Shown: positions 2,720 through 51,562, counted from the first letter of the stretch. The stretch: DNA of 64,000 bases from Phoronis australis (GCA_002633005.1 NMRA01000269.1:217083-281082); one strand, 5' to 3'. A program made the numbers and translations. The notes: generated by a model not told the origin, from the sequence alone.

Positions 2720-3015
2720 GAAAGTCTTATGTCATCACTTACATTGAAATAAACTTCCGCCAATTTGCTCCGGAGAGTTTTGCAATTTACAAACGAACAC
2801 ACTCGGACAGTCAATGGATTCCATACCAGTACTACAGCGGCAATTGTGAGACAATTTATGGAGTGGCGGCCAACGGTGTTCCAGCGTCTGAGATGGACGC
2901 CACCTGCTCGGACCAGTACAGCGACATTTTCGCAGGGCTCAATGCACGGGTTGTATTTAGTACCCTTGAAAACCGACCGGGAAGAAGAAATCACCAAGAC
3001 AACATGCAGATTCAG
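2720..3015 (+). CDS. Laminin gamma-like exon, LN domain (central part)
   Basis: ttttttag|GA AAG TCT...; [27 protein letters not shown] motifs; donor CAG|gtacac. Confidence 0.92.
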
Positions 3016-6000
3016 GTACACCCCATGTTGTTCTGTCTTTAAAATGTACGCAACGCATGGAATACTGCAGATGTAAAATATTTTGGGGTTAGCGAGACAT
3101 TACGAGTTATTTAAGTATTCTTTTAGGAATTGACCAAAGGGTGGGAAGCGAAATTGCATAATTTCAATATCCAACAATTTACATGTGCGCGAACTTATTC
3201 GAAGTTGGGCGTGGTGAGTTTTGTTGTATGTTATCTGCGTGCAAGAAGAAACTCGAGACTAGGCACACTGAATGTCAACCTGATTAAGATCCTCAAATGT
3301 GGGTTCCAAGTTCCTGTCGATCCCCAAGTAAGGCCACCTCTAGTTTCTACTGAAAACGTGCATCCACTTGCATGAATGTGTTGAGTTCTAGAATTTCTGC
3401 TGGTCACGTCAACTCATATCGTGCGCTACATCGCTTCTGATAGGCAACTCCCATTGCTATGAGTAGCTACTGTAATTTTCTTCGTTGGACGCAACAACTG
3501 TTAAATGTAACGTTTTTAATAGTTTTAGTCAAACTAGAAGCAAGAACTGGTAAACAAAAATGACGCTAGAGTGCAGCATGAAAACGACGTTTCGATACTA
3601 GGCAAACATCATCCTCAGGTACACTCAAACAGAATGAAACAGAATACCGTAACATAATGCTCACTTAGCATCACAATGCATGATACAAAATCTGTCAACT
3701 AAAAATTGTTTTGCTTAACTATTGAGGATGATATTTTCCTAATATCGAAAAGTCATTTTCATGTGACACTCGAGCGTCGTTTTCGTAACGGTTTGAATGT
3801 TCAAATTTTTGGCCAGTAGCTGTTACACCAATTTTCGGCCTTTCCCCGAGTCTGTGAATACTTATTTTCAGACCTACTACTTGGCTATTAATAGCTACAT
3901 GTAGCTTCGTTGAGGAATCTAGAATATTCAGGAAAGAGGCAATCACAATTTTCGGAGGAAAAATGTTCGCGCTACTTCAAAATTGACATGCTGGCGGCTT
4001 TTTCGTTACATTTTTTGTTGGGTCGGGTCCGGAGGGATATGGCTGGTCTCTTGCCCTCCTCTTTAAATTTGCTTTTGATGGAGTGATGCCCTGTAAGTAC
4101 TACAGTCTGGCCTACTTTCTATTAATACAGGAATGGATCACGGCTACGGACATTCGAATAGTTATGAGCAGGTTGTCGACACTCGGTGACGAGGCGTTTG
4201 GTGAAACAGATGTACTGAGGTCTTACTTTTACGCCATTAGTCACATCGCAATAGGTGGCAGGTAAGTGGAAAACTCTTTTGCGAACTCCCAGGGAAAGTC
4301 CCGGGAATAGGCTCCCACAGAGGCCATGAAGAGACGTGCTGCTAAGTCAAGTTATATCGGTTCTCCTTTTGGAAATCGTTGTTAGATGGGTAGGTCCACT
4401 GTTACTTTGGTAACAAAAGAGGTGACTACGCGAAAGTGCTATGTTTCGTTTTTCATCAGTGGCATGTCTCGGATACTCATTTTTCCGGCTGTCGTTGACA
4501 AGGCATTGTGGTGAGTTTGCGGTGGCAAATGCCTTCACGTTAGGTGGAAGAAAACTTTATTTGGTGGTGGTAGGGGCGGATCCAGGATTTTGAGTTAGGG
4601 GGGAGGGCAGAGTATTAGCCAAGATTTTGCCGTCAGACATTCGTTCCCCGAACTGCCAAATGGAATCTGGGTGAATTTTAGGGGGGCATGGCCCCCTTGC
4701 CCTTTCCCCCAAATCCGCCATTGCTATTGGTCATTTTCTGTAAAAAGAAAATTCGAAATCTGTGAAAGATCAATTCATCGATATTCACCACAACTAATAA
4801 CAAAGAAATACTGCTCTATCAAACATAAACCACTCCCCACGAAACACTCCCATTTTTTGTATACGGCAGGCTTATGTGAAAAACTGGAGAGTGTAGACAC
4901 GTTCCGAAGCCACTTTTCGAACTAGAAAGTAATAAACGAGATCGTAAATCAGAGTGTGTACATTATACAGTGGTCCAAAAGTTATGTACGGTGGCCTAAG
5001 CGGGAAATCGTAATGCGTGGACGGCGACTAAAAGGCGACTTCGGCTGTTCTGATCTAAGTGATTGCGACGGTTGTCGGAAATCCGCGGCAGCTTTATAGT
5101 CCACCATCGTACACTGATTACAGTAATTTTGCTGACATCTTTAGCTTTCCCACTGATATTTTGTCGTTCAGTTTTGTACTGGCCTACGCTGTAGTCTTCC
5201 ACGGGTGAGATTCTCACCAGGAAACATATTTTCGTTAGTAGTAACCTCAGCCCAAAATTATTTAACCAAACTAGGTCGTGGTGGGATTCTTCTCTCAAAA
5301 AGTGACAATGTTCCGTGGCAGATACTACTGTTCCGTTTCGCATACAGTAAGCCCACCCCCGGGTCAAGCCTGCTCAGAGTCATGCAGGGCAAGCAATGAA
5401 CTACCAGTTCTTCCAGAATCTCTAGCCGAACTGGGTAAATCTAGCCTGTGTAAGGAACGAGTTAAGACCTGGGTAGAATCTCGCTAAAGAAGCTAATATG
5501 ACCACGTGCTTTAGTTCATGTGTAATACGTGGCGATTTGTCACGACGTTTCGTGTGTACTTGCGTTTTCGCGAGACTCTCGCCCCTACGAAACGCACGCC
5601 AAGAAAGTGGTCTAATCAAAAGCTATATTTGACAGAGGGCTGTGAGCACAGGCGCTTGAGTTTATCTGTTCCCCGATCACCACTGACGTCACTCAAGTTT
5701 CTTGTATATGGTTATGAGTCATCGGGAAATTCGAGTGTCTGTGGCTCTGAGCAGCTTCAATGGAATACCACAGACTTTACTCAAATTAATCGATTACATT
5801 TCCGATCCTTTGGCAGGTGTCAGTGCAACGGACACGCTAAAAACTGTTCCAGCAGCGACAAGTCAGGAGAGGGACCAATTTGTCAATGCGAACACAACAC
5901 AGCGGGAAAGGACTGTGATCGATGTATGCCGTTCTTCAATGAAAAGCCCTGGACTCCCGCAACGTCGGCAAACCCTAACGAGTGTCTCCGTAAGTTCGTT

Positions 6001-8479
6001 TACACACTGACGGAAGGTGTAGTAGATTAAAGATCCATTTCGTCGTGCTTAGCATTAGGCGTTTACCTCGTCAAATCGGCCTGACTCATAATTTCTTTAC
6101 CGTAGCATGACTACTTCTTTTGTCAACGAGAACATCGAAGCTATCAACGAAGTATTCAAGAAAAGGCTTCAAAGTTTATTTGTGTTGGCCTATGCCTTGG
6201 ATTTGCGAAGTCCACAAATTACTCAAGTATTGCTTGTGATTTGAGGTGGTAACGAAAATGGAATCTTTTCACAGGAAGGAATGTGAGACTGATTTTATCA
6301 GAGTAAATGACCAAATTCAGTTTTCGATGTTTTTTCACAAGCTAACTAGGGCGAAATGCAACTTAACGCAACTTGGATTAAAACAGGGCTGCGTTCCGCA
6401 AGGGCAATTTCTGGCAAGTTCAAAGGGATCGCGCAAGTCTTCGCAAGATACCGCCATGCATCAAGCGAAGCAACTGGTCTCGTTAGATATAATTTGTCAG
6501 ATCTTGCGTTATCGAAATTGCCCTCAAGAACAACTGACGATATTGGGTATGCGAGAAGAACATTTCATCGAAATGTTTTGTATGACAATACTAAGCCAGC
6601 CAAAAACACCTGATCTATCTTACTATTTTGAAGGGATTGAGGAGTAATCTTTCAACTGCGATTCATATCCCTATTTACTACTTGCACGAATTCGCCATTA
6701 TGCTTGAGAAAGAGGTGTTTTGTCCAAACTACAAAGGTTCTGCATGTTTGCAACACGCCCGCTTTCACGACGTTACACTGTTTCACAGTGCTACGAAAGG
6801 TTTAACATCATTTCTCATTGGTTAAAGTAATGAAACCGACGTCATAACATTCAGTCATTCTCATTGGTTGAAACCTGGGAAACCCCTTTCAGTTTCCTGC
6901 CAGGTAGTATGGCGACCACCTGTGACTTGAACAGTAGCGATTGATTAAAACGGACACAGTGATCGACGTAAACAAAATCATGGAAATCCCGATCTAATGG
7001 TACAATGCATGGAAGGCGTGTGCAAGTGGTGGATGTGATATGCGCATTGATGCCCACACACGGAATTCTTTGTGTCGTTCATCATGTTTCCACAGGGCCA
7101 CTTTTCACTATAGGTGGCACTGTGTCAGAGGGTAGCTTTCACGTTTGCGTTGTAAAAATTGATGCTAAAGCGAGGCACTGTGTCCTAAACAACAATGCAC
7201 AACAATCATTTTTGTAGCACCACCAAAGTGTGCAAGTAGTGAATGTTAATCAAAGTATTTTACAATATAATTTTGTTACAGCCTGTGACTGCAATGGCCT
7301 AGCAGACAATTGTTACTTCGACATGACTCTTTACAATGCCACTGGACATGGCGGTCATTGTGAAAACTGCCGGAACAATACAGACGGCCCTCGGTGTGGG
7401 AAGTGCAGAGCAGGATACTGCCGAGACAAAGTGTCTGGGAATTGCGTCTTGTGCAAAGGTGAGTGCGAAGCGGTCTTTACTGCGAAGTAGCCTACGGCAC
7501 ACGACGGGTCGTACACGGTGTCTGTAAGTTCGAATGACAATAGCTGTAGAACTGCGCTCGATTGGTGTAAATGAGTGGAACGGCAACGGGTGGTTTCTGT
7601 GTGACGCGATAGTATTTAGATACGAAAATCTGTCCTCACTGCGCTACCGTTCTGACACATGCCCTTAGATTATGGTCGATAATCCGAGGTGTTTCTCCAC
7701 AGTGGGCCCAGAGATATATTCTCGACTGATGCAATGTGTGCAGTGCCTTAAAACTATTTTATTAGCTGTAGGATTGATACACTAATTTAATATGTACACT
7801 GAATACTCCGATGTGGCCATGTGTGTCGCTTGTGACTGTCATTCACATATGTTCCTCAAGTTTGCTTGTTCGCGTCAGATTCTATTAAAGAAAAGAAAAT
7901 GTTTGCGAGCGAGGGTCAATTTTGTTTAATGTTGTGACTTAGGTGAATTCCTGAGCATAGGCATCCAGCTGATTGATGCCTGTCATATGTTTTTGTATCT
8001 CGACGCAAGCTTTTTCCCTCGTTTGTTCTCGGTAAATCGTTGAGTGCCCAAACTCATCGAAAATCATCTTTGATCTGCTTCCATTGAATGTTTGTGGGAT
8101 TAACCATATGGAGGACGATATTTGTGTTTAGTTTACATTTTCCCGCGGCCTGATTGGCTGGAATTAATAGCTTGATTGACAAGTCGGAACTATCCATTGA
8201 TCCAAAAGCTGTTTTCGTTGAACGACTGTTTCCTGCGATGACTTTTTAAAGCGCAAAACTAAATTGAGGGTACCTTTAGCTCGCTAACAACTAGTCCTAA
8301 GCATCACGGTTTGTCTCAATAGTTTCTAATTTCCAGTGTCTTCCGGCAAGTACAACTCGACACTTGAGGTAGAAGAAGTCAAGGAAAATGGAAAGCGGAA
8401 TGGACAGGTCGCGGCAAGACTCCATCTGGGGCTGTTGGTGACAGTGCTGACATCTATTGGGCTGTTATACAAGCGCTAA
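2720..8479 (+). CDS. Laminin gamma-derived short protein (LN + 2 LE + hydrophobic C-terminal tail), 5' end outside or unidentified; exons 2720-3015, 4131-4261, 5817-5989, 7282-7458, 8337-8479
   Basis: Spliced translation [43 protein letters not shown]...[51 protein letters not shown]...[22 protein letters not shown]...[30 protein letters not shown] matches laminin gamma LN/LE1/LE2 motifs (TGHGGHC is gamma-type, not netrin-type). All junctions are GT/AG with matching phases (1,0,2,1,1). Confidence 0.85.
3561..3779. repeat. Imperfect inverted repeat (foldback/MITE core)
   Basis: 3561-3618 is similar to the reverse complement of 3722-3779. Confidence 0.65.
4131..4261 (+). CDS. Laminin gamma-like exon, LN domain C-terminus
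   Basis: atacag|GAA TGG; [10 protein letters not shown]...[13 protein letters not shown]; donor AG|gtaagt. Confidence 0.93.
4571..4723. mobile_element. Short non-autonomous DNA transposon (GGGGCGGATCC...AATCCGCCA termini), copy 1
   Basis: Imperfect terminal inverted repeats; near-identical copy at 51563-51718. Confidence 0.75.
5817..5989 (+). CDS. Laminin gamma-like exon, LE1 (laminin EGF) repeat
   Basis: tggcag|G TGT CAG TGC AAC GGA CAC; 8-Cys LE pattern; donor C|gtaagt. Confidence 0.93.
6820..6995 (+). repeat. Dispersed repeat, diverged copy at about 10415-10595
   Basis: Shared blocks cattggttgaaa.ctgggaaaccc and agtatggcgaccacct.tgacttgaa.agt, attaaaacgg, gtaaacaaaa. Confidence 0.7.
7282..7458 (+). 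CDS. Laminin gamma-like exon, LE2 repeat
   Basis: gttacag|CC TGT GAC TGC; CDCNG...CYFD..LY..TGHGGHC pattern; donor AAA G|gtgagt. Confidence 0.92.
8337..8479 (+). CDS. Putative terminal exon encoding spacer + hydrophobic anchor ([47 protein letters not shown])
   Basis: Branch-like ctaat plus ttccag acceptor, phase 1 matches upstream donor, open to TAA at 8477-8479, AATAAA at 8571-8576. Confidence 0.72.
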
Positions 8480-8570
8480 GGAATTGGGCTCCTGGCAACT
8501 GAATGAGGTGTGCCTCCGTAAACCTCCATTTCTGCTTTAGATACCAATGGTTTCTCAAAACGACTGAGAA

Positions 8571-8576
8571 AATAAA
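8571..8576 (+). terminator. Candidate polyadenylation signal of the laminin gamma-like gene
   Basis: AATAAA about 90 nt after the stop codon. Confidence 0.45.
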
Positions 8577-11500
8577 CCTTATGGTAATTAATTAGTATCT
8601 AGACAATGACATTGTTCTCTCTAGCCGTGACTGTAAAAGAGTTCAGCTGTTCTAAATAATATATAAATGGAAACTCGTAAGAGTTCTTATAAGCCACCAG
8701 GTTTCCTGTTGGGCAACATGAAAACATTGTCGAAAGCGAGGCAGTACTTTTTACCCTGTTACTGTGATTGAATGTTGCACGTGGTCTATTAGGAATTGGG
8801 TGTTTTGCTTTGGCAATTCCAGAAATTTTGAGCCCCGTTTCACAAATCTTAGTTTTAATCTTAAGTCTTAAGCAAGTTCCGTTGATGGTATCATGGGTTA
8901 TAGACAACAGATTCGCAACTCCGACATTTTCTTGCATACTATCCTAGAGGATGCGCCACTCTCCGGTTAGTGCATTGCGACAACGAAAAATATTCGGCAT
9001 TGAAACGCTGTTCAAAGTCTTCCAATAGTAAAATTGTTGGTATCGTGAGTACATTTAGCAATGCTATTACCACCCGACCACACAACATCCGACCATGATT
9101 AGCAGACGACGTACTTGCCGTAAATAATACTCGATAAGGTGTCACTAGTGAATAATGACATAACGGCTTGTGCGTAAGAAGACGGAAAGTATACGGAGTC
9201 GGCGGTCTATGATAGTATGTTAACACCTTTGTTCAACACTTGTAATGTAAGGCGCTATGCCAGTGCCATGAGATGAAAATTGGACAGTGCTGTTCAATAT
9301 CTGTATTTAGTAATTTGCTACAATGTTATGTTAGGCTGATGTTGACTGACTACGCCGATTCTGCCTGGTAAATCGGCTGAAAACATCGATCTAATTGGTG
9401 TGTTGTAAGCCCGAAGTCGTTATCGAGACCCAATCAGATCCCTTTCAGTAGCCGATTGACCCGACGCAGTCAATCAACTGTAGCCATGGTGACCATGCAA
9501 AGCGCAGAGTATCTTCTCACATGCATGGTTTGTAACTATAGATTGTTAAAGTGATGACAAAACAGGTTGATTTTGCATACTTCCATTGCTGTGCACCGCA
9601 AGTGCGCTTTTTATCGCAGTTTATCTGTTGACCACCAGGCGTCACTTGTGCTAAACGGAGTTTTCATTCTTCTGCACATGGAAGTTTTACTCTAGTCCTC
9701 AGTGTCTGACCTGTTGCTAATTTAAGAAAAACAAAGTAGATGCGAAAGCTAAATCGATGTGTGTTATGACTCATTCAGTACGAGTATAATATGCAGAAAA
9801 TTATGAGTTGTTACTGAACTTACCTGAGATATGAAAGGGCAACGTTGATCGCCACGCTGGCCGGGTTCCCTGTGTCGTTGGCTGTTGAGGTGAAAGAGAC
9901 ACGCAGAAATCATTCAGCAGCACATGTTTTATCACTGATTGATGTAACCTTGGCAGGCATTGGTTAGCTTTACAACAAAGAAAAAAATGGCGGACTGTGA
10001 ACGATTTTTAACCTTGTCAACATCCTCACGAACCAAGTTTTCTCTCTGCAGCAAATGTTTCGTTTCTGCAGTAATGTTTAATAACCCCGTGCTTCGTTGA
10101 AGCACAATGCACACTGATCTGGCCGATTTAACTGGTGAGTTATTCATACTGTGTGAATACAAGACAGCAACGGCAAAAATCATTGACAGTAGAAAAATGC
10201 ACACCTACACACAGACACACAACTTTCTGAGTCACACATACAGAACACTCCCAATGAACCACCGATTTGTTTGAACAGAGCAAAAACTATACCCACATTT
10301 ACACTTCTTCAGTCATGCCAGTTTGTACCTGCTGACAATTCGTTCAGTCAATCAGAAACGTCGGTGTGTGGGGAAAAATTTCGCATTGCAATGATGTCGA
10401 ATGTTGTTTAACATTGGCTTAAGTTATGAAGCCAACGTAATAGCTTTCAGCCATTCCCATTGGTTGAAATCTGGGAAACCCATTTCAACGGTTGAGTTAC
10501 CGAGTATGGCGACCACCTTTGACTTGAATAGTTGTATTTTATTAAAACGGGCAGTGATCGAAGTAAACAAAAGCAAGGGACACCCGCCGATCCGGTGGCA
10601 TAAGCCTAAACATGCACAGTACATAAAGGCCGCGTGCAAGTGGTGGCGATGTGAGTCGGAAGTATACCGATTTTTCAATGAACACTAAAATCTGTCACAC
10701 TAAGATACTTTAAGGAACAGATGAATAATGCTTAGTATTGAAAAGGACTGTTGGGTTAGTCCTGAAAGGGACTGTTTGGTTGAGTCAAGATATTAAACAA
10801 AATTCACAAAAATCGCAACAGGTCTATCAACGTCGGAGGCTGACGGTAAGTGACATGACTGCCTAAAAGCAGCGCTAGCTGTTAGCGAAGCGGGGTGTTT
10901 CATACAGCGCCACCTGGTTGCGGCAAAGCCTTGAGTGAGTGGGTACCTTTTGCGCTTTCATTCAGGGCCCAGAAATGGAACTTATAGCATTTAAGCAAAG
11001 TTTTGTTACAACGAACAGATTTCCGATAGGTGTCACTGTCGCAAAGAGGTGGACCGTCCCAAGACCGTAATGAGCTTGATCAGTACCAGTATAGCTACAG
11101 TAAAGGGTATCTTTTACGAATTACGCTTTCTTCGGCTTACGAAAAGACAATCCGCCAAAATCATTCTCTATGAGCTATAAAAGCAACATGAGAAACCCAA
11201 TTCGGTGTAACACGGGAAGAAAGCTTCACTTCGACTGGGAATGAAAAGACCGCCGGAAACAACTGGAGGTTATGAGCGCTCAGCATCAGTTGGGGGAGGT
11301 GAGGGTGGGCACAAGATACATATATAGTGGCACAGCACAGGTTAGAATCATTCGAAAACATGCATGTGTCACTGTTGCCTGGATTGAAACAATTTGACCA
11401 AATTTATGAAATTTCACCGAAGAACTCAAGTTATAGAAACCACAACGGGGCCAGCAGTAGTCAAATCATAAAAATAGACGCCCACCATTATCATTGTCAT

Positions 11501-13440
11501 TTGCAAAAAAATAATGAAGCACCTTGATGGGGTTCACGAGTTACAACTGCCGAATTTCCGTAATCAAGAACGAGATGGTAAGTTCTTTCCACCCGGGCTA
11601 GTTGGAAACGAACAAAAAGCCCAATGTTTTACGGTTTCCTAGTCATACAGAAAGCTGACAAGAAAATGTTATTTGAAATCACCAGCATCCCACGAATTGG
11701 CCCCCAAAGCATCTCATAAATGACTAAACACAAAAATGGGAAAAATTTACCACATTTTGCTCTCCAGTTTAGGTGGAAAAACTCTTTAAACGTGAAAAGA
11801 CTGTCTTCTGATAGAGAGGTTCAATTTTAACAAAAATATTATTAAAAAATTTTCTCTACCTTTCATTTGCACCGTTTAAAACTGCTTTACTTACTTTACC
11901 TATGTGAACCAAAAATGTGCTTTTTGGGCCAAAATGTTGATGATGCTCTTTAGAAATATTGGCCCGAATAATTTCAAATAAAAGTTTTGAAAAAAATTCA
12001 CCAGGCTCGTTCCAGCTCTCCGAGCCCCCCCCCCCGGTGCGCGCATATAACTCATAAAGTCCTTTACTATTGTACAAAGAAGTTTATTTTCGAACAATTA
12101 GAATTTGCAAATGAAAGACAAATTAATAAATAAGTAGATGATAATAAATTAAGAAAATTCAGAGGAAGCGATCAAAATTCGCGCTGGCATTTCCACAAGT
12201 ACACATTGCGTCTTTTTAAACTTTGAATAAAGCAAAATCTGCTGCATTTTGTGCTTGCACTATCGACAAGGAAACATAACTTCAGGTAAATGATGTGGAA
12301 CTCAATTCCATCGTTCGACATAGTTTGCCAAAGAGCCGTAAACCGGTCGTTATTTTACGACATTGACCAATTTATAAAACAGTTAGGTATTATTTTTTTT
12401 ATTTCAAATAGCAGACTGTTAAGTTAAGAAACTAATGTCCTTGCATTGAACTTTTGTTATTATGGCGCTTAATAATAGCGCGCAACATCAAATTTCGCAG
12501 GTACGTCATACTAAACAGCAGGCCAACACAAGCGTAGACTTCTTTCAAACAGGAAATTTGAATTTAACAAAAAACAAACGTCTGGTCTTAAATAACTCAT
12601 ATCACCTAAACTTATTTCACAATCCTAAGAACATGACATAAGCGCCGTCTAGTGGAATGCAGCGGTGCAATTGTGATCTTGAAATTCGCGCGCTTTTGAG
12701 ATGGTCAAGTTGCGTATTCTTATATTTGAGCTGAAACAGTTCAAAACTAAATCGGTGATTCTTAATTTTCATTTTTTCTTACGTCTAATTAAACACGAAG
12801 GACATCAAAATAAAACATTAAAGAAAATAATTTAAGGATATAGCTCTGCGAAATATAAATAAAGCCGTTAAAACATAAATCTGCGCAAAGCCGATTCAAA
12901 AATATGTCTTCAATTTAATTGGAGGTGGCTTTTCAGTAACCCATGTAAATTTCGTATTTTTCCAAGAAGCACCCCTGTTTAGGCAGCTGTAAAAGAAAAT
13001 AAATAATTCGGTGGTCCCACTTTGTTTTGCAGATTTGTACCTGGCCAGGACCAAAAACAAAAACAAAATACCGACCATAAATCCAAACTGCGTTTAACCT
13101 CCTTAAAAAATAGTGACGTATAATTTAAAACATGAGTAGTATATACATATTTACAATACTCTGTAGTCTTAGTCTTGCCACTGAGGAAACCTTCATTATG
13201 TCAATGGCCATGGAAAAGGCGTGACATGACATTTAAAAACAATGACAGTAGATCGGCATTGTCACAAACGTACTCTTCCACAGTTTCCACGTGAAACCAT
13301 GGTAAAACTAGGTTGCTATCCCGCCATCTATCCGGGAACCAGCCAGCATTGTCCAAGCGCACCAGGTTCTCCGCATCGCTCGTGTTGGAAAAAGTTACTA
13401 TTTTAGCTTAACTTGGTATTCGGTAAGACGATTGTCAGTG

Positions 13441-13601
13441 CTAAAATAGTGCACTTCCTATTGTGGACTTCATCTCAGAACTGTTGAATGCCGACGCTGA
13501 ATTTGAGAGCACACTCGAGTAGGGTCCGGGTAAAGAGGGTGCTGAGGACAATGAACCAGTCGACTTGGTTGTACTTTCGTTTGTTGATTGCACCTTATTG
13601 C
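13441..13601 (-). CDS. PHOX2: Phox2 exon 4 (C-terminus)
   Basis: ttttttcag|GC, in frame SNKVQST...GPYSSVLS...[13 protein letters not shown]; resembles PHOX2 C-terminal P.SSVLSS...F motif. Confidence 0.85.
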
Positions 13602-16600
13602 CTGAAAAAAGCAAACCCTCATTTGCAGTGTACATATAATTGATTATATTCACACGACGTCTTCTACTATGAAAGGTAAAACACTGATTGGAAAGAGAAT
13701 CCCTGCGAGTAAGACGCGACTGCCAAGTACACAAATTCAACATCTACCAACGACGCCGTACTTGCGGTTTAGTGAAAACGCACATCACTTACCTAGGACT
13801 CTTTAAGATTTATAATATTAGTAATAGTAAAAGGAACAGTAATAATAATAATTAAAATTATTAATATTTGTCACAATTGTTATTATTATGTTAATAATAG
13901 TAACAATAGTAATAATGATAATTATAGTTGTTGTTATCATTATCATTGTTATTATTATTATTGTTATTTTGTTATATAATCATATATGGCAGCAATGACA
14001 ATAGCAATAATCTTAATAAAAATTAATTATTATTATAGTAATAATGAAAACACTAGTAACAGTAATAATAGTAACAACAGCAGTAATAATAGCAATAATA
14101 ACAATAACAATAATAATAATGATGATAATGATAATAATAATAACAGTAATAATAGTAATAGTAATAATAATAATGACGGCGCGACACGATATCGTGGTAA
14201 AATTTCCAAAGGTTAAAATATAATTCAAAAACGTGTATTGTCTAGAACTTACTAGTGTTTTCTTTGGCAGGTTTTGATTCCTTCATACTCTCTGTTTTCA
14301 CCGAGGAGTTACTGTTGTTACTGCTTTGTGGTGTTTGAGTTTTGGCTCTTTCAACCTTCCTGAACTTTGCACGTCGGTTTTGAAACCACACCTGGAATCA
14401 GAACAATAGAATCCTACAGCTATCATTACGTCAAGCGGCGTGTACTCTCGCAGACAATTCATAACAAAAGTGTAAATCTTGTATACGCTCCATAACAGCG
14501 ACCTCATTTTAGAGGCATTATGGATAGGGTAAGTTTTCTACAATACCGAAAACAGGCTATGCGGAAATAAAAACTTCCGCCAAGATAGTGCAACGAGTAA
14601 TAATACCTTTCACGGATTTTAGCCGTTTCTGTTGTAGTCAATATCCATCTTTATAACTTCAATAAATTCCAAAAAGTGTGACTTCATCTAAGATAACTCC
14701 ATCATGTATTTTTCATCCTAAAAGTTCTTCCAGGTTAGCCAATGCCTCCCCTTCTTGTTACCAAGGTTACATCTACTACATAGCCTTTGTGTTTATCTTG
14801 GCATTACGTTCAAGTATTCTCCATAAGATTTGCATATATTCTGCGGCGAAGTCGTTCTAATTACGCACACAAAGTCTACAAGAACGTCGCCCATAGCACG
14901 TGCAACTACTGTCTCTACCAAGTGAGAAAGGAAAGGGGCATTTCTACTCAAGTTTAATGAATGAAAAATATTATGGAGCTGGTAGTTATGAAAATTTCTT
15001 AATGCTATTCATAAATAACTTGAAGCTGAGATTAAATTAGTGAAACCTCTAGGGGTTTGCTCACTTGGTACCAATGAAAATCGATACAATTTAGCAATGC
15101 AAGGAACTTAAACTCTGTATTTGGTAATGGGCAATTTTGGAAGATCGTGAACAAATATCTTAGACATCTCTCTTCTCAATCTCAAAACCAGATAAAACTG
15201 TTGATTAAAAACGACTAGTGACTTTAAAGCTAAAAATCATAGCATCGTACTTAATGTTTGTACCAAAGATCCATGTAATTATATTTTTTGAACTTTGAAT
15301 CACGTAATGACGGGTGCTCGTGTATGTTAATGAGCTGTCATTATTGTTGATTCTGCTGCAAAGATAATATTTCTAATAATTATTTTGTAATCAGAACTGA
15401 ACTTCCAAGATATACAGTCTCCCGTTATCTTGTGAGCACTAAGTTTTATTACATGTTGATTTCGCTGCGCTGATAATTTCTACTCGACGCGCTTCTTAGT
15501 TCCGCGGTGAATTCTATTCTTTTCCCGATTCGTCAACAAGCGCTCTAACAACTAGTTTTCTTCACCGATGTCTAAACTATAAAAATGTGCAGCGCTTCCA
15601 CAGTTGGTTTACCTCGTAAATTTAAATGATCCACCCAATAAAACTCCAATAAATGCATGTGCTTGTAACATAATAGACCAAGTGTAATAAATCCAAATTA
15701 ATGTTTCAATGACCCGCCCTAAAACAAAATATGGTCTTCCATTCCTTTCTGTGTAAAAAATAACCATAAGTTATGGTTCCTAGGTCCAATGTGCATATCC
15801 ATAAATACTAATAAAAGACAGGACATAAAAGAGAATAAAAAGTTAGCGGGAGCATAAAGCATACAAAGTCGATGCTCTGACAGATGGTACGACCGATATA
15901 CCTCGTGGTCATTTTTACTCCAATTCAGGAGCCCACTCCTTTAATTACTCCGTAATTGTTAAACATAAGCGAGAGTAACTCGTTCGACAAAAGACAGAAC
16001 CAATTAGAGCTCTATCAACAAGACATTTTGCTGTAAAATATGCTCGATTTTGTTATTAATGGCTCGAAAGATTTTTTATTAAGAAAGTTCGTTTTGGACA
16101 CCTCCCATTTTCTGACAAATGTCTTGCTTTACAAATTTTCGGTATGGCTGGTTGAGCTGTTAAGCAATACGCGACTAGCGTGTCACGCGATAACACGTTA
16201 CTGATTACATGCCAGTGTTATTTGCATACATATACATGTTAACAGGGGCTCTATTCATGAATTGGAATGTATCATTTTAATAATAAAATCCAATTAGCAT
16301 TACTGTAATTGAACTATTGATACTTTTAAGTCCAACTAAAGTGTAAGTTGTTCTTGTAAATGATTCAGCGTTGCAGCGAAGGCCCAATCAGTGTTCTCGC
16401 GAGACTACACGGGCATTCATTCGTGAAATGTTCTTCGCGCCCTAGTCTTCTGGTATGGTATTCACGAAGGACTAATCTCGCGAAACTGACCAGACAGTAT
16501 ACACGTGACAACTCCGCTGCAAGCAATATCACCTACGCAATCATTACTCGTGAAATGGAATTCAAGGTTTTTGCTGTCATCCTTCGTTGCGTGAAAGCTC

Positions 16601-19600
16601 ATTTTCTGTTGCATGTGCCCTAAGATTATGTTACAAATTATCCTTTTAAATGCTATTCAAATCCCCTCATCACTTCCACGTATCTGCCTAATAACGTCTC
16701 GATTTTCTAGTCAAATGAGTTCCGATTGACATGTAAACATGGCAAAACATTGGAGCGTAGTCTTTCCAAATGCTTACAATTTTTAAATTCCCGAAAAGAT
16801 TGTGTGTCAGTTGTTTGTGTTTTTTTTCACAGGATTCAGTCTGAAACGCCCAAGCAATGACAACTAAACCATGTAGAGTTTCAAAACCTAACACCTTGCT
16901 TGCAACTGGGTACATAAGTAGTGGAGACAAAAAGCGATGTTTTATGTGCAGTAGGAATAAACGACATTTTCAGATGCAGTCCGATGCCAGCAAAGTTATA
17001 CAGCCCACAGTCTCATACTCAGCATGTATATATATATACATTATATATAGTACCTACTCGCAGATCTGTCTTCAATTTGTACCTGAAGACGATATTTGAA
17101 ACATGTCGAAACGTCGTATTGTCGTAACGCAGATCCTCAATTTTCCTTTTCTGTATAGCCATACTCTAACCATTTATGGAAGCTAATATTCCAAACGTGT
17201 TTGGCAAGGGGTTAAGGGAATACGTGTATCATTCGTGTTTGTATTCAGTACTTAACCCAGAGAACTATTTCCTTAAAATAACGAAATGGTTTCTCAAATC
17301 ATTTTCCGAAGCGTCGCTGTTAGAAAAAAAATTACCTGAACCCTGGCTTCTGTAAGATCTATTTTCATGGCTATTTCTTCTCGCGTGTAAATATCTGGAT
17401 AATGCGTCTCGGAAAAAGCTCTCTCGAGTTCTTTGAGTTGCGCACTGGTGAATGTAGTTCTGATGCGCCGTTGCTTTCGCTTCTCGGGGTTAATAGACGG
17501 ATCATGATGATGGGTGGCGTGGGGATACATTTTATAGGGTAGTCCTGAAATAACACATTTATATTGTTTAACACAGGAAATCTTTCCATTATCTATCCAG
17601 AATGCCCAAGGTGTATACTATGATTGGCCTAAATTGACGCAGGCGTTAACAGTTATAATATGCACTGAAAAGGAAATCATAAGTGTATCATTTATGAGAA
17701 GTATAAATTGCCTGATGCTGTTCTATCAAAAGGATTTAAAATCTATTTTTCTATTAATCAATTCGTTTGATCTAATTGGTTAATTAATTGACTAAATGAA
17801 TAATAACTAAAGAACAAAAATAACGTATACTTATCATGTGCCTTTATTCACTTAAAAATCCCTGAGGTAAACAGACGCACGTGCAAGTCACGTGGAGACA
17901 AAGTGTCGGCACGTGGCTTTCACCTCAGGTGAGTTTGACATGCGTCGGCAACGTTCCGATACTCTGAGTGATCCGATAATGGCTACCCTTTTGAGGTATT
18001 AATTCCATGGATTTTTGGATGATAATTGTGATAAATTACAAAGTTCAATAATGAAAACCGACGCAAGAACGGAACCAAGCGATTTTTGCAACAACCAGCC
18101 TGTAAGTTTACATTTGAATTTGAACTCGGGTTATCAAGATTCGTCCAAGTAAGAGGGCTAGTAGACTCGCCTGTTATGACTGCCACGTTTACATTCAGTT
18201 TGCAAGAGTCCGTTGGTACTAGTGAGCACGCGTTTGTTGCCGCGAACACGACGACACTTTAATATTCAAGTACGTATCTGCATAAATTTTCATTTGATGG
18301 AGTTAAACGTTGCATATCGATGAGAAAAATCAAAAACTAAAGTTGGTTTGACTTTGTCCCTTACAACGGAAAATGACATCGGGTAGGAGCTGTCTATTTT
18401 CTATCTCAAAAATCATAATCTAACAAAATGATGCTAAATAACTCCAGACTATTTACAGAAATGTCTGTCGGCTGCATGCAGTTTTTATCCAGCGGATTCA
18501 ACAGCGATAATGATTTAAATGTACAAGTGACGTAGCTAATGTCTGTAAATGATGTTCGTTGCACAAAGTGAAACGATCGAGGTCATAAAACGCCTGCTGA
18601 GTCTCACAGATGTCTTATAATGACTATGAAAAATTCATTGCTCATTTTGTTTTATGATTTCATGAAAGCAAAACAACTGTTTTAACGAGCGACCATCAAT
18701 CTCGGTCTATCTGTCGGAAAGATTGCAGGGAGTGCGGCTAGGCGAAGATGATGGTATCTTATTTAATTAAACTTAAAATTAGCATAATAAAACCTGATAA
18801 GTACAAAACATTTATAACAATCCGATAAAAGGATAATGATCACTTTTTTAGAAAAATTAATGAGCTACAATGTTTTGGTGTATCAATTTTCACGACGTAG
18901 ATAATTTATCGTGTCGGTTCTGTTCAACTGCACCCGGATGCAGCCTTAACAAAGAATCTTTGCAGAAAATTTGCTTCTTCATATTTTTAGCAAAATTTAG
19001 TTATTAGTATCTTTTTTCGCGATGTGCCCCTAAGCCAAGATATCAGTCATGTTTATCGTATCGGGAACTGAAACAAATACGCATCTAGATTGCCGACAAC
19101 TATTTGTACGCGGGCCCTAAAGACGCTTAGAATTTCTTTTAATTGTTCAACACTGCCCACTTCATTTAAATATCACTCGAAACCTATTATCAAAAATTCA
19201 AAGTGCTCTTAAAATGCACAGTATCTCTCCTGATGTCAGAGAGCTGAAATCGGATACAAAAGTGAACATATTGGGTACATAAACTCGGAGCGCCCATTAC
19301 GATAAATGCAGTCCGCCCGGGGTAGCCGTGTATTGTTTATCAAACGCATTGACCATATGCGCGCTTAATCGAGACGATTTGAGGGCTTTTATCCTCGTTT
19401 CATCCAACACCTTCGTCCTTCAAATTACGGTTTATCTTCACACTAAACCGCGTGTACCCATATGTGATGAACAGAGTTTAACAATAGCCGCTTTTTATTG
19501 TCTTTCTCTGACAGGCTCATAATTTCTGATTTCTTGTCGCGGGCAAAGGCTTAATCGTAGCATTTGGAACTTTGTCGAAGCAGTTTGCTTGTCATTTCAT

Positions 19601-21883
19601 GAAACAATTTGCTGTCGCAGCAATTTGACCTATTTTACTAACTTACTCTAGTTTGATATCATTATGCACCCATACAACCAATCGCCACAAATAATAGTGT
19701 AGTGCATATTTTACATGGAATTAGCAGCGTGTCTGTACACTTATAAGGAATTTTCTGTTGACACAAGATTTTATGCTTCAAGAAAATTGTAGTTTGATTA
19801 AGGCTGAGAAACTTCAAAACGATTTCCTTGAAATGTTTGCTTAGATATTTTGTACTTTCTATGTATTAAAAGTGTGTTATGTGGGGCTTCGCCTGTTCCT
19901 CGTAATAATTTAAACCTATCTCCGTGCTAACTAACAAGTTCTCAAAATGGATAGATTAGAAATCATAAACATTTCAGTATCAACACACGGAATATACCTG
20001 TCTTATTAATTAACCTGATTTCTATTAAGCCTTAAAATTATTTTGATAAGATCGCCTTCAATATTTACTGTCATTTTATTTACCCTAAATTTGAACATCA
20101 TCGAATAAAAGAAAAAACTAGTCGCATTCTCTTACAGCCAAATTATAGGGATCGCCAACATGAGAACAAATTATGAGAGCAACTTTTTTGTTGAAAAATG
20201 CAATGCGAGGCGTTAGGCTAGTGCTAGAAGACGTGAAGGGATTGACATCGAATTTTGCGACAGGATATAGCGAAACAAACTGGTGTCTCTTTCATTACAT
20301 CGTCAAGAAGAAAAAGGTATAACACGTTCCTGAAACTTAACAATAGAACGATAATTTGACGAGAATAAGTGAATTGTTGCATCGTTCCGTTGAGGGTTGT
20401 AGATATAAAAATCAAAATTCACACTTCGATGAACATTCTGTCATTGTGTGTACAGAAAATGATGAATAAATACTTGAAAAATAAATCTATAAACTTTTAA
20501 CTAAATCTCCAGTTCTTAGGAATTCAAACCGAAAAACTAAACGCAAATGGCTTAACACTAAAACTTGTCACCTGAATATCATGAAATAACCAATTCAGTG
20601 CTCTCACAGAACAGTATAAGCTGTACAGAAGAACTATACTTCTTGAATGTTTATGAAAATCTATGAAAGACAAAAATGATAACGAGTGTGTAAGCTTCAT
20701 TATTTTCAACCAAGCAAAGACAAGGAACAAGGAACATATATCATTTAAATTCTTAATTTTACCAGGTCGTTTTAACGCCATCAGAATTAAAACTTAACTT
20801 TATTATTGAAACGATGTGTGTGTGAACCATAGAAAAAAGACACAGTACTTAGAAATGTGTGGTAAAAATTAAGAATGTTGCATTTTTAAATCCATAACAA
20901 AAGCCAACTCGAAGGCATAACGCAAATTATCCAAGGAAGTCGACGATGTGCAGATGTGTGTCTGTTTTATGTCAATATGCTAAAACCGGAATGACTAATG
21001 AATGATCTAACCAGAAAATAAATAAAAATCTCCCTTAAAAACAAGTATTCAGTTCTACAAAGCGCACTGTAAACAGTAGTACAAAAGAACTATATGTCAC
21101 AGCTAGGAATTTTGTAAACCCTCGTTTGTATACCGTCTTATTACATCTTGGCAGATCGTGTTATGTAATTCAATTAATTTGTCAATTTCACAAATAAACA
21201 AAGATAAAATACATGTACGTAAAGTAATAGCAAAAAGATGCTTGGTGCACATTAATGTCAGTAATGAAATGAAACAGGGAACAGACACGCTAGAAAATTA
21301 AATTTCCAACGGATAACTATCGGATAATTGTGTAGTAAACGATAGGAGGCGAAATGATTTACACGAACGTTGATTCAATTGTTTTAAGTTTTCTCAACTT
21401 TATTGAGTTTATCCTCCGTTATCATATATTTCCAGTCGACTAAGAAATTATCTAAAACGAAGCTGAATCATTTAGTAATCCAATTTTGAATATCTAATGG
21501 CTATATGCTCGACAGTATTAACTTGGTTACGGACCGGGTTAAAGTGATTTCACCCTAGGAAATTTCATTTACTTGTTAATGAAACAAAACCGCTCACAAA
21601 GTCACTTACCGGCAGTGAAGACGGACGCCTGGTGTCCGTGTGGGTCACGTCGGGGGTGCAGCATGGTCATGTTGCCCGGGGGTGGCAGGGCCGGACCGGC
21701 TCCGGTGAAACTACGGACTGGATTATATCTGTAAGCCTGTGACATGGAAACTTGTCCGCATGGGCCAAGATCACTGTATCCCGTACACGGAATACTGCAG
21801 CTCGCCAAAGAACCCACCCCGTCCATTCCACCGAGTGCACAACTGTCGAAAGCCGTCGTTTGATTCAGGTAAGAATAATCCAT
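13441..21883 (-). CDS. PHOX2: Paired-like homeobox protein Phox2 (260 aa); exons 21883-21610, 17544-17336, 14391-14253, 13601-13441
   Basis: N-terminus MDYSYLN (PHOX2A/B signature), YNP and LPYK motifs, homeodomain [50 protein letters not shown]|[13 protein letters not shown]-terminus ...IGSALF*; phases 1,0,1 consistent. Confidence 0.96.
13810..14175. repeat. Degenerate (AAT/TTA)n low-complexity tract in Phox2 intron 3
   Basis: Runs of aat/aac/agt and tta/ttg triplets. Confidence 0.9.
14253..14391 (-). CDS. PHOX2: Phox2 exon 3 (helix 3 WFQNRR)
   Basis: ttccag|GTG TGG TTT CAA AAC CGA CGT GCA AAG TTC AGG AAG; donor A|gtaagt. Confidence 0.95.
17336..17544 (-). CDS. PHOX2: Phox2 exon 2 (homeodomain helices 1-2 and start of helix 3)
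   Basis: tttcag|GA CTA CCC TAT AAA; ends EARVQ|gtaatt at the canonical PRD-class intron position. Confidence 0.96.
21610..21883 (-). CDS. PHOX2: Phox2 exon 1
   Basis: ATG at 21883, [15 protein letters not shown]...ASVFTA, donor G|gtaagt. Confidence 0.93.
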
Positions 21884-22486: not shown

Positions 22487-23395
22487 ACCAAAAATAAGGC
22501 AGGTAAACGTAGTCCAGAAAAAAATATTACTCGTCTGCGCATGTATGCTGCGGGTGTGTGTAAACAGGTTAGTAATAAAGCCACCAAACCACGCTGATAT
22601 TACGTATTCTAACGCAGTTGCAACAAACTTAGTTCAAGAAAACTTGAATAAAATTGGGAAAATATTTGATTAAATTGTACTAGTAAGACAGATAATAACG
22701 ATTTCTTAATGGAATATTATAATTGAAAAATGAATACAAATTGATTGGAGTGATGAGATAAGCAAATGATGATTTAGCAGGGTGATATCAAAAATGTGTT
22801 ATATCAGAACACAGTTAAAAACAAGTCCACGTTTGAAATATGCCTTTCGTTTCGTTTTAAACCAAAATGTGTTATACATCGACACGTGTTTTGATAAACC
22901 ACGTGGGATCGATTTGCTTACAGCTCGTTTAAGTATACATNACCAAAAATAAGGCAGGTAAACGTAGTCCAGTAAAAAATATTAATTGTCTGCGCATGTA
23001 TGCTGCGGGTGTGTGTAAACAGGTTAGTAATAAAGCCACCAAGCCACGCTGATATTACGTATTCTAACGCAGTTGCAACGAGCTTAGTTCAAGAAAACTT
23101 GAATAAAATTGGGAAAATATTTGATTAAATTGTACTAGTAAGACAGATAATAACGATTTCTTAATGGAATATTATAATTGAAAAATGAATACAAATTGAT
23201 TGGAGTGATGAGATAAGCAAATGATGATTTAGCAGGGTGATATCAAAAATGTGTTATATCAGAACACAGTTAAAAACAAGTCCACGTTTGAAATATGCCT
23301 TTCGTTTCGTTTTAAACCAAAATGTGTTATACATCGACACGTGTTTTGATAAACCACGTGGGATCGATTTGCTTACAGCTCGTTTAAGTATACAT
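22487..23395. other. Assembly join: 454-bp duplication (22487-22940 / 22942-23395) around a single N
   Basis: Near-identical direct copies abutting N at 22941. Confidence 0.9.
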
Positions 23396-26719: not shown

Positions 26720-27192
26720 TATCTTCCTTTCGACAGCAAAAGTATATATTTTCTGAAAGTAGAAATTCCGTAGAATTTAATTTTTGACTTTGCACCAATT
26801 TGCCATTGATTAGGTCACGTGACTGCGATCTTGGTAAAGTTTAGTAAAACAGAGAGCTACATTCACAGCAAAACAACAGGATCGATAGCTTGAGCAAATT
26901 TCGTATGATATTAATGTTCATGATAAAACCTCAAAAATTCGGTTACAGTTTTCCAATTTATCGTTTCATTTTAGTTTCCTACAACTTTAAAGTTTGAAAA
27001 ACATTGTGTCCTATTTTGATAGCCACTCATGGAAAAGTGAAACATTTTAGAAAGAATGTTCCTATAGTATTTCCGAGAACAGTAAATAAAGCACAGCGCA
27101 TGAAGGTTTCGTATGAATCCGATCAGCCATTTCTGAGATATGGCGTTGCGATGTTGACCGAAATTGGACATGTTTCTAAGGTCCTCCATAAC
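26720..27192 (+). repeat. Dispersed repeat family (copies about 26720-27192, 36270-36480 partial, 45555-46012, 54300-54748)
   Basis: Shared blocks gaaagtagaaa...gaatt..attt.tga...gtcac.tga and aaatt.g.a.at.tt.....gg..cct.cataac. Confidence 0.6.
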
Positions 27193-28739
27193 GTGCAACA
27201 CGTGTAGACTGTGTGATTGTCTTACTGGCTTATCTTCTAAAACAGAGGCCGCAAATTAACGCACTAAAAAGTCCAAAAACTGAAATATTTGCGATTCGTT
27301 GTTTTTATTTTAATATTTTCTCTGTCAAATTTACCATCAAAGAATGTTTTCAAAACAATACTCATTAGAGAACTTCCACTTGACTAAGCTGATCATCACA
27401 GTATCAATCGGGACTGCAATTTAATTCAATTTAGTTATAAATGAACAATTAGGAGACTGAGTCTAGTCCACCAATCTGTGTGATGAAGACGGGTAATCTG
27501 CACTACAGTCGTGGTGTTGGCCCCTCGGGGAAATGCTCGCCAGATATAATTGAATTAGTAGCAATTTCACCGATGAGTGAAATGCTAAAAAGCGAATTGG
27601 TTCCGAAGCCAAGAGATTAATCAATAACGTATTACAATTTGTAATTTAGCACAGTCAGGTCCATTGCTCCTGAGCGATTTTGAGAAGGAATTCCAGAGAG
27701 ATGTGCGCAAAAGTCAGAGTTGGTAGCATGGCTAATGTTCTCGATCCCGGTAATGTCTCAAAAAGTTGCCACACGCAGTTGAAATGTTCATGAAGAGCCA
27801 GAGAAAGATAACAATTACGGGAAATAAACGCGTGCGAACATTGATAATTTACGGTGTGCTTAACACGTCAGNTCGAACTAAACGGCTTAAAACTCGAAGA
27901 AAATAACAGAATAATCTCTGCTACCGTATTGGGCAAATGGCCAAACGACAAGCTATTGCCCCACTTCCCGTGACATCACAGTTGAGTCTCACATAATCTC
28001 GCGTTATTGTTATAAACTCGCAAAAGGACTATTGGACATGTTTCTAAGGTCCTCCATAACGTGCAACACGTGTAGACTGTGTGATTGTCTTACTGGCTTA
28101 TCTTCTAAAACAGAGGCCGCAAATTAACGCACTAAAATGTCTAAAAACTGAAATATTTGCGATTCGTTGTTTTTATTTTGATATTTTCTCTGTCAAATTT
28201 ACCATCAAAGAATGTTTTCAAAACAATACTCATTAGAGAACTTCCACTTGACTAAGCTGATCATCACAGTATCAATCGGGACTGCAATTTAATTCAATTT
28301 AGTTATAAATGAACAATTAGGAGCCTGAGTCTAGTCCACCAATCTGTGTGATGAAGACGGGTAATCTGCACTACAGTCGTGGTGTTGGCCCCTCGGGGAA
28401 ATGCTCGCCAGATATAATTGAATTAGTAGCAATTTCACCGATGAGTGAAATGCTAAAAAGCGAATTGGTTCCGAAGCCAAGAGATTAATCAATAACGTAT
28501 TACAATTTGTAATTTAGCACAGTCAGGTCCATTGCTCCTGAGCGATTTTGAGAAGGAATTCCAGAGAGATGTGCGCAAAAGTCAGAGTTGGTAGCATGGC
28601 TAATGTTCTCGATCCCGGTAATGTCTCAAAAAGTTGCCACACGCAGTTGAAATGTTCATGAAGAGCCAGAGAAAGATAACAATTACGGGAAATAAACGCG
28701 TGCGAACATTGATAATTTACGGTGTGCTTAACACGTCAG
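27163..28739. other. Assembly join: about 709-bp duplication (27163-27871 / 28031-28739) around N at 27872, with 158 bp unique to the second copy
   Basis: Near-identical direct copies, few SNPs. Confidence 0.9.
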
Positions 28740-29419
28740 ACTCGTCAAATTTCTCAGAATAAAAAGTAAAATACAATACGTCCGAAAAATGTACTCATAT
28801 TCCAGTACAACGCCGGAAGCTCAAATTCATTTCCTGTGGATGAGACCGCACAACTGGGCCTATCATAGAGATATATAGGTTATCCCACATACACGGGAAT
28901 ACTACTGTCATATCCTATCAAGAATTCGCTTCATCTGGAAATGTCCCAGATGTTATTCGTATTTCCACACATATGGGATAAAGAGACACACACATATATA
29001 TATAGAGTCTCCATGTCTATGGAGCCTCCTGTGTACTTTGCTGTGAACGTAGGCTCGTAAGCCGTCACGTGCTTTGTATGCACGGAAATGGCAGACAACG
29101 AAAATTTATTGCGCACTGGAAACTCAAAAACGTCAAGGAAGTGCAGACTGAGGCAATTAATCTTCTCCCCAAGTTAATAAACAGTGCATTTATTTTGGTT
29201 TGTAGACGCAATTCCTTTTTCATCACCTCCTTATGAATTTAACCCAGTAATCTTGTTTCTTAGACAATAAACGACGCAGTTAATGTCATTTGTAGTGTGA
29301 GTACATTTTGGGAAACCCTGTATTTTAATTGAGCAATGCAATAATGTAACTTTAAGAACTCTTGGTACGCATTGCACTGTCTCTTTCCCTTAGAGAAAAC
29401 AATCCATCACAAGTATTGT

Positions 29420-34361: not shown

Positions 34362-34568
34362 ATGTTGCGTAGAGCCTCAAAGAGGGGCGCAGGCGTCACA
34401 GTAAATGCCTCTACGAAGGACAGTGATCGTCCAAAACGGACGAAAAACTCCCGAAATATCTTGGGAGTGAAGGCGAAAGGCAGCGCCGAAATGGAACTTG
34501 AGAAGCTTGTGTTCGGAGGTGAAAGTGAAATGCTGCAAGAGTTGGAAAAGCGAACTTACAAGAAACAA
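34362..34568 (+). CDS. UTP18: UTP18 exon 1
   Basis: ATG...[11 protein letters not shown]...KKQ|gtaaga. Confidence 0.88.
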
Positions 34569-49071: not shown

Positions 49072-49204
49072 TTTCCAATGTGGAAAGGAGGGATTTATGT
49101 TCCAACCTGTCAATGGTTGGGATTTCTTTCGTAGACTATTTTTTCCAATGTGGAAATGAGGGATTTATGTGCCAACCTGTCAATAGTTGGGATTTCTTTC
49201 GTAG
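49072..49204. repeat. 70-bp tandem duplication spanning the sulfotransferase stop codon
   Basis: 49072-49134 and 49142-49204 are near-identical. Confidence 0.9.
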
Positions 49205-50958: not shown

Positions 50959-51562
50959 CACCTGGAAATGGAAAAAGAAAATTTTGATTAAAAGAGATAC
51001 AAAATAGCTACTGACCGCAGTTAGAACATTAGGTTTTTCCAGCTAAATGAGGCTCTGCAACCCTCCTGAACCCAAGAAAATATGGAGCTAAGACCCAATC
51101 AACACTGGGTCCTAGTATGGAGTACATCTGAAAATTCAGTGCGAAGTTTTCTTCACCAACAAACGTTAGTCTCGCGTCGTGCGAGTTAAGTAAAAGTGTT
51201 TTAGCCGGGAACGTAGCGATTCTAGGGATATTACTAGTAATGGGGCAATGATCAATAGTAAAATATAATCGATTGTGACCAAAAGTCGAGCGCTCGATCT
51301 TAATTTTAATAAACGCGATTAACCGAATGCGCAATCTCCGTAAATGGGCGAATTTATGTTAAGGTAGTTTTAGTGCTGTTCTTGCGTTGACCACAAACAT
51401 TAATGGACCAATTTCCAATGTAATTTTGACATTAAAAGTATAGTTAGTGTTTCTGTACAATTAAATTATCACTACGCACTCTTGGTTATTTTTACCAACT
51501 CGCAGATGAACTTTATGTTGTTTTGGTCTGGTGGTCCACACGGGAGCCCGGGGGGGTGGCAG

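Follow-up and report, generated by a model that had tools for sequence, protein, structure and literature searches.

A spliced, short laminin-gamma derivative with a predicted GPI anchor in Phoronis australis

Can a ligand of the cell surface be made from a laminin gamma tip? This question is raised by a gene near the start of a 64,000-nucleotide stretch of Phoronis australis DNA (GCA_002633005.1 NMRA01000269.1:217083-281082), the whole of which is called the window here. An earlier reading of this DNA, made without database searches (the sequence-only reading), had described positions 2720-8576 as a short, probably glycosylphosphatidylinositol (GPI)- or membrane-anchored derivative of a laminin gamma chain with the architecture of netrin-G. 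Three independent spin-offs of laminin tips have been published, with netrin-1 derived from a gamma chain, netrin-4 from a beta chain and netrin-G from the beta/gamma-like group (Leclere and Rentzsch, PMC3516229). These origins are repeated in PMC10084454 and PMC9788559, and among the spin-offs described in these sources only the chordate netrin-G is membrane-anchored. The gene in Phoronis is expressed and spliced, and we give a chance of about two in three to the interpretation that it encodes a GPI-anchored product presenting a laminin head at the surface of cells, likely from a separate duplicate of laminin gamma.

Five plus-strand exons with AG/GT ends (2720-3015, 4131-4261, 5817-5989, 7282-7458 and 8337-8479) join into a frame of 305 codons that runs without internal stops to the stop codon at 8477-8479 and whose product consists of half of an LN domain followed by two LE repeats and a 47-residue tail. 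The first exon (98 codons) covers the middle of the LN domain and the second its end, with Pfam Laminin_N scores of 83.7 and 40.7 bits, respectively. The third and fourth match laminin EGF in Pfam and encode LE1, with 8 Cys, and LE2, with 10 Cys, while the fifth has no Pfam match. The LE2 exon starts at 7282, since the acceptor AG ends at 7281 and the frame is lost if the exon is begun at that position, and it stops one residue past the first Cys of LE3, with a phase-1 donor 4 codons before that of a related locus, L010. The reading frame is intact despite ~50% divergence from every homologue (at most 52% identity among 365). When 15 full-length laminin chains were compared with the window by tblastn, the four LN/LE exons were recovered (E<1e-12) together with 2 weak further matches (E 0.44-0.46), and no L4, coiled-coil or additional LE exon was found in the 64 kb.

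The RNA evidence comes from four runs of one species label and two studies: X1, a presumed RNA run, and X2-X4, which were chosen by species label and of which 18-19% of each raw run was read. The joints, loose ends and variants described are those listed for these runs, beyond which there are 32 joints, 812 loose ends and 472 variant rows. The joint 3015>4131 was covered by 1, 8 and 20 reads in X2, X3 and X4, respectively, 4261>5817 by 4, 5 and 20, 5989>7282 by 2, 9 and 28, and 7458>8337 by 10, 9 and 44. All four joints have GT..AG borders, their first mates map to the minus strand, and a single X1 contig spans the last three, so that 7458>8337 is seen in 4/4 runs. Read depth around the last intron (19, 9 and 54 in X2, X3 and X4 at 7408; 12, 10 and 48 at 8344) roughly equals the number of reads across this joint, and sense depth in the intron bin between 7458 and 8337 is 0.1-0.3; therefore, a longer isoform is at most minor in these samples. 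Six coding variants are listed, with the outcomes I>V, a silent change, R>K, a silent change and K>E. Thus, the central proposal of the sequence-only reading, i.e., LN and two LE repeats followed by a phase-1 splice from 7458 to a last exon at 8337-8479, withstood the RNA check that it had suggested, and its statement that no further LE, L4 or coiled-coil exon precedes the neighbouring Phox2 gene agrees with the tblastn comparison. The AATAAA that it placed after the last exon is indeed present, at 8571-8576, but it is not the main 3' end, as much or all of the message reads through it to ~9800-9990.

This approximate end defines a 3' untranslated region (UTR) at 8480-9990, which is covered by X1 contigs at 8335-8807 and 9074-9800 and by an X4 sense-strand depth of 25-40 through the bin 9535-9988, with no sharp 3' end among those listed. 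At the other side of the gene, loose RNA ends were found before 2719 in 4/4 runs, and their translation is the laminin-gamma motif that precedes this exon, as judged by comparison with protein P0003. The message carries, upstream of the exon at 2720, another spliced LN exon whose sequence has no match inside the window. The 5' exons are therefore located outside it, presumably before position 1, and if P0003 is taken as a guide, the complete protein would count ~430 residues. Dispersed repeats in the introns and the 3' UTR (4570-4700, 5640-5740, 6800-7250, 8860-9080 and 10390-10600) attract many unstranded reads from other loci; those at 6800-7030 and 10390-10600 are alike.

From which class of laminin does this head derive? 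In comparisons with PDB entries, exon 1 scored 87 bits against gamma1, 53 against netrin-1, 29 against beta1 and 16 against netrin-G. The corresponding values were 52 for gamma1 and 38 for netrin-1 with exon 2, and 58.7 for gamma1, 42 for netrin-4 and ~30 for netrin-1 with the LE2 exon, netrin-G giving no match with either. On all four LN/LE exons gamma1 outscores netrin-G. The Phoronis sequence has a median identity of 47% with the 40 gamma rows, which are mutually 54% identical, and of 41% with 12 netrins, and it lacks the insertions that netrin-1 carries in LN and LE2 in the alignment rows inspected. The mean identity to the gamma rows, 47.5%, is the lowest of any gamma-type row (at least 49.5% in the others). 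In both trees, a quick one of 58 rows and a careful one of 29 of those, the Phoronis sequence sits on a long branch on the gamma side of a netrin branch with 100% support. No stable sister could be retained, as this place is taken by Intoshia in the larger tree and by Patella (97/94) in the smaller one, with only 4 rare residues shared. Taken by their sequence, the LN and LE1-2 domains are of laminin-gamma type.

This assignment bears on the relation with netrin-G. Since the published trees place netrin-G in the beta/gamma-like class and the Phoronis domains score as gamma-type, the likeness between the two is one of architecture, not of descent. Of the two options that the sequence-only reading had offered, convergence with netrin-G is therefore supported, as is the gamma type that it had assigned to LE2, whereas the option that the locus informs on the origin of netrin-G fails in view of the other laminin class (PMC3516229) and of the scores for exon 1 given above. 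Its description of netrin-G as vertebrate-specific, a term also used in PMC4706652 (vertebrate-only), was too narrow: netrin-G is reported in chordates only, but with amphioxus and a tunicate in the table (PMC3516229). The orthologue with the same tail for which it had advised a search did not turn up either among 365 homologous proteins or among the 49 metagenome loci listed. The maximum identity to these 365 proteins was 52% over 150 or more residues, and no orthologue was seen when exon 1 was compared with longer proteins (3 matches among 18 candidates), among the best 150 of 312 matches in representative proteins (highest identity, 51% across most of the exon), among the best 120 of 1532 with a gamma N-terminal query, among the best 120 of 449 with a mixed profile, or among the 49 metagenome loci (at most 49% identity over most of the exon). 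Parts of exons are misplaced in the alignments A1, A3 and A4, the last of which nonetheless served as a search profile. Three proteins with hydrophobic ends, P0064, P0066 and P0175, were rejected as orthologues: the ends follow further domains or unrelated sequence, as in gene models with read-through. Titles and abstracts in the open literature revealed no anchored invertebrate LN protein, although Fahey and Degnan 2012 and the supplements of PMC3516229 might list such short genes; the portion consulted of a review of the echinoderm extracellular matrix (PMC10381214) mentions no netrin.

The last exon encodes, in this order, a charged spacer with an N-glycan sequon, Asn-Gly, a linker of seven residues, 15 uncharged hydrophobic residues (8426-8470) and Lys-Arg, with no Cys in the 47 residues. 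The PredGPI description (PMC2571997) calls for an omega residue C, D, G, N or S at 20-30 residues from the end, flanked by small residues and followed by a spacer and, from omega+10, by a hydrophobic stretch. The Asn at 8399-8401 is the best candidate for omega, with the next Gly as an alternative; it is followed by 25 residues, with the hydrophobic run starting at omega+9, and thus agrees with this description in omega residue, distance and tail. The best 15-mer has a Kyte-Doolittle (KD) hydropathy of 2.09 and the best 19-mer of 1.73, and the uncharged run extends to 17 residues if one His is included. Among 518 other stop-ended frames of 47 or more codons in the window, 10 had a hydrophobic stretch, 1 had an omega-like triplet as well and 0 also had a polar spacer, by criteria (uncharged hydrophobic 15-mer, omega-like triplet, polar spacer) that were set after the Phoronis tail had been seen. 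GPI anchoring is a prediction from such layout rules only, and the signal peptide that it presupposes would sit in the 5' exons outside the window.

The LN surface has changed at positions that matter in laminin polymers (residue numbers are those of mouse gamma1). Exon 1 retains Y147 (at 2740) and carries R149>E (2746) and S213>F with P214>A (2929-2934), where gamma rows have Arg in 28/40, Ser in 29/40 and Pro in 40/40, respectively; exon 2, aligned with 4AQT and 8DMK, retains D261 and S278 and carries D266>E. The calcium loop with D108 and T116 belongs to the exons upstream of the window. Overall, 12 of 59 well-conserved LN columns are changed, 3 of them in the loop just after S213. In gamma1, mutation of Y147, S213 or D261 breaks the polymer node (PMC9852560; PMC11260871), and S213R abolishes binding (PMC12328585; PMC9852560). 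The D211-S213 loop lies on the face for beta1 and netrin-4, and Y147 and R149 lie on that for alpha1; R149E exists as an engineered variant, for which the part of the source consulted reports only a lack of effect on netrin-4 binding (PMC12328585). The surface changes suggest a loss of lattice binding. The LE2 exon encodes two Cys in addition to the 8 of the canonical LE pattern (PMC3409155): an extra one at 7419, which replaces the aromatic residue of nearly all rows and has a Cys counterpart in 0/55 grouped rows, and the orphan first Cys of LE3 at 7452. In a model of LE2 (predicted local distance difference test score, 88), for which the best Foldseek match is 4AQT, i.e., LN-LE1-2 of gamma1, these two spare Cys flank the last β-hairpin (strands 45-47 and 54-56) at diagonally opposed places, and they may form a disulfide that caps the cut LE rod.

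How would such a product work? A coiled coil is required for incorporation into a laminin heterotrimer, and since the frame of the message has none, the product cannot join one. A signal peptide encoded by the 5' exons would direct it to the endoplasmic reticulum, where the transamidase would cut after the Asn at 8399, or after the next Gly, and add the GPI, while the extra Cys and the orphan Cys of LE3 would pair and close the LE rod. With both lattice faces changed, the displayed head may bind a new partner instead of the tips of beta and alpha laminins. This is the weakest step, and a new partner is only slightly favored over a function as a laminin tether. Outside the laminin lattice, the product would probably serve in adhesion or recognition, as a ligand comparable to netrin-G. 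As to its origin, a laminin gamma gene may have been duplicated in part, its phase-1 donor shifted and a new last exon captured, independently of netrin-G; the gene itself is likely a separate duplicate of laminin gamma. In its fullest form, the proposal is that of a second, independent netrin-G design in a non-chordate, with a gamma tip that was duplicated, capped by a disulfide, stripped of its lattice surfaces, GPI-anchored and provided with its own receptor; for all of these elements together we remain tentative and would bet slightly against.

Several observations weigh against the interpretation as an anchored gamma derivative. LE1 is not diagnostic, as its best netrin-1 entry scores 65 bits against 58 for gamma1 (netrin-G, 28-33), and the trees were built without an outgroup and without netrin-G or beta/gamma-like rows. 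In approximately unbiased (AU) tests, neither a grouping with the netrins (p 0.17) nor one with short oyster proteins (p 0.26) was rejected. In the tail, omega-1 is Arg, omega+2 is Gln, which is not small, and the C terminus is Lys-Arg; a single-sequence model gives one long helix without the expected loose linker, which is weak evidence either way. Hydrophobic ends (KD >1.6) also occur in 6 of 69 LN+LE1 and 3 of 186 LN-LE2 homologues, and because these look like read-through in gene models, hydrophobicity alone proves little. No match to the tail was found among the 49 metagenome loci. In the LN domain, Y147 and D261 remain unchanged, position 149 is variable in full-length chains (Arg in 9/13), and the divergent ones among such chains show as many as 11 of 55 changed columns, which is only just below the Phoronis value.

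Several of these points recur in the alternatives. The tail might stay uncleaved and span the membrane once as a short helix, with Lys-Arg as a two-residue stop on the inner side, so that the product is tethered to the surface but not GPI-linked. The terminal Lys-Arg fits the positive-inside rule, and the Gln at omega+2 and the helical model agree with this option; however, an uncharged run of 15 residues, or 17 with the His, and a best 19-mer of KD 1.73 are modest for such a helix, and the position of the Asn-Gly relative to the end is canonical, which together make the option unlikely. A somewhat smaller chance is given to a recruited tail that does not anchor anything, in which case the product would be a secreted short tip, comparable to the short proteins of oysters or to LaNt alpha31, that modulates or competes in the assembly of basement membranes. 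Unanchored oyster derivatives of 375-414 residues with transcript support do exist, hydrophobic ends can occur by chance, and the retained Y147 and D261 would suit this function. Yet, the complete layout of spacer, omega and hydrophobic end was found in 0 of the 518 chance frames, and the tail exon is properly spliced rather than the result of intron read-through.

Far less probable are two explanations that deny the gene its separate, gamma-derived status. A true relative of netrin-G in the beta/gamma-like class, or an early offshoot of the stem of gamma and netrin-1, would carry the anchored plan back to early bilaterians. It would account for the common overall plan and for the long branch, the AU test leaves room for a place at the netrin stem, and the comparison was made without beta/gamma-like sequences. 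Nevertheless, netrin-G scores 16 bits with exon 1, 28-33 with LE1 and nothing with exons 2 and 4, against 87, 58, 52 and 59 for gamma1, and an ancient lineage should have left orthologues, of which there were none among the best matches listed from the protein, representative and metagenome searches; we consider this explanation highly improbable. We expect even less that the locus is the main laminin gamma gene, with 8337-8479 as an alternative last exon and the remainder far downstream or on another scaffold. That the genomic comparison covered this window alone, and that the RNA amounts to 18-19% of three runs from one study, with 812 loose ends beyond those listed, would be in its favor. 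On the other hand, nearly all of the read depth at the donor is accounted for by the short joint; the next 55 kb hold Phox2 and other genes but no laminin exon; the LE2 exon halts past the first Cys of LE3, 4 codons before the donor of L010, so that LE3 cannot normally be completed; and the mean identity to the gamma rows is the lowest of all. The anchored, separate gamma duplicate is the reading that we prefer.

If this reading is correct, the design of netrin-G can be reached repeatedly and is not a single event of the chordate lineage. It would also raise to four the number of times that a laminin has given rise to a free LN-LE protein, and it would be the first such case in which an anchored one derives from a gamma chain. 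Furthermore, it would provide a natural test of the LN surface changes that switch a lattice domain into a surface ligand, with R149E equal to a laboratory mutant. The evidence comes from one species, the anchor is predicted and the partner is proposed.

The remainder of the window contains other genes. A PRD-type homeobox gene on the minus strand (13290-21883), with its homeodomain exon at 17336-17554 according to Pfam, is convergent with the laminin-derived gene; we take it to be Phox2, as did the sequence-only reading. Plus-strand exons further downstream (34362-45000), of which two pieces were tested and gave no Pfam match, presumably belong to a UTP18-like gene, and an intron between them (~35440-35870) appears by eye to contain a tandem repeat with a unit of ~37 bases. 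A sulfotransferase gene lies on the minus strand at 49183-51042 (Sulfotransfer_2, 181 bits); its last exon is long, and an exon upstream encodes a hydrophobic anchor. Two copies of a stretch of 454 bases, 98.7% identical, border a single N at 22941 (22487-23395), and a longer repeat, seen by eye, flanks the N at 27872 (about 27150-28740). These probably represent contig ends that overlap, or else two haplotypes that were joined at gaps in the scaffold.

The closest known structure is the tip of laminin gamma1 (LAMC1 LN-LEa1-2; 4AQT and 8DMK chain G; PF00055 and PF00053), which is the best sequence match for 3 of the 4 exons and the best fold match for LE2, corresponds to the same fragment as the 4AQT construct, and has Y147, D261 and S278 in common with the Phoronis product. 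In contrast to the gamma1 chain, the latter ends after LE2 in a new, anchor-type last exon, has R149E, S213F and P214A and contains the extra Cys pair; the long LE arrays, L4 and coiled coil of a laminin gamma chain are not encountered, as the frame in the RNA stops after exon 5. Netrin-1/UNC-6, which is ~41% identical, is likewise a spin-off of a laminin gamma tip (PMC3516229), but it is secreted, has three LE repeats and an NTR domain, carries the insertions in LN and LE2 and forms its own branch with 100% support, whereas exon 5 of the Phoronis gene has no Pfam match. LaNt alpha31, a short LAMA3 product, also combines LN, LE and a C terminus that is brief and unique (PMC9788559); it differs in being an unanchored intron-retention isoform of a full-length alpha gene, where the Phoronis product is of gamma type and has a spliced last exon.

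Similar shortening is found in oysters. Proteins of Crassostrea virginica (XP_022325556.1), C. angulata (XP_052674691.1) and Saccostrea (XP_061183716.1) share with the Phoronis product a gamma-type LN domain, 2-3 LE repeats and an aromatic residue at 213, but they end a few residues past the last LE, have no hydrophobic tail and form a 100/99 clade of their own that leaves the Phoronis sequence out. This family (P0187, P0042 and P0178; Crassostrea/Magallana and Saccostrea) is transcript-supported, with a hydrophobic N terminus and no anchor, and is possibly another unreported spin-off; one oyster-type cluster (n=71) consists mostly of short contigs from sequencing runs. In Styela clava, short gamma-like gene models of 438-516 residues (P0148, P0293-P0296 and P0308; those of 438-457 residues are among the homologues), one of which has a kringle match in Pfam, occur on a contig equal in length to that with a full-length gamma chain and may be genes or split models, and a mantis shrimp gene model (P0340), in which a gamma-type LN-LE segment is followed by a trypsin-family domain (PF00089), is a fusion or an annotation artefact. 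Thus, shortening of gamma tips recurs, and, judging from the sequences, an anchor-type tail is seen only in Phoronis among these homologues. That feature leads back to netrin-G1 and netrin-G2 (laminets; NTNG1/2; 3ZYJ, 3ZYG and 3TBD), with which the Phoronis product shares the plan of an LN domain and few LE repeats, with neither NTR nor coiled coil. Netrin-G has NGL/LRRC4 as its binding partner. It is chordate-specific, of beta/gamma-like origin, and built from LN, three EGF repeats and its own C domain (PMC3516229), whereas the Phoronis product has a gamma-type LN, two LE repeats and no C domain; a C-terminal GPI-type signal, established in netrin-G (PMC10084454), is predicted in the latter.

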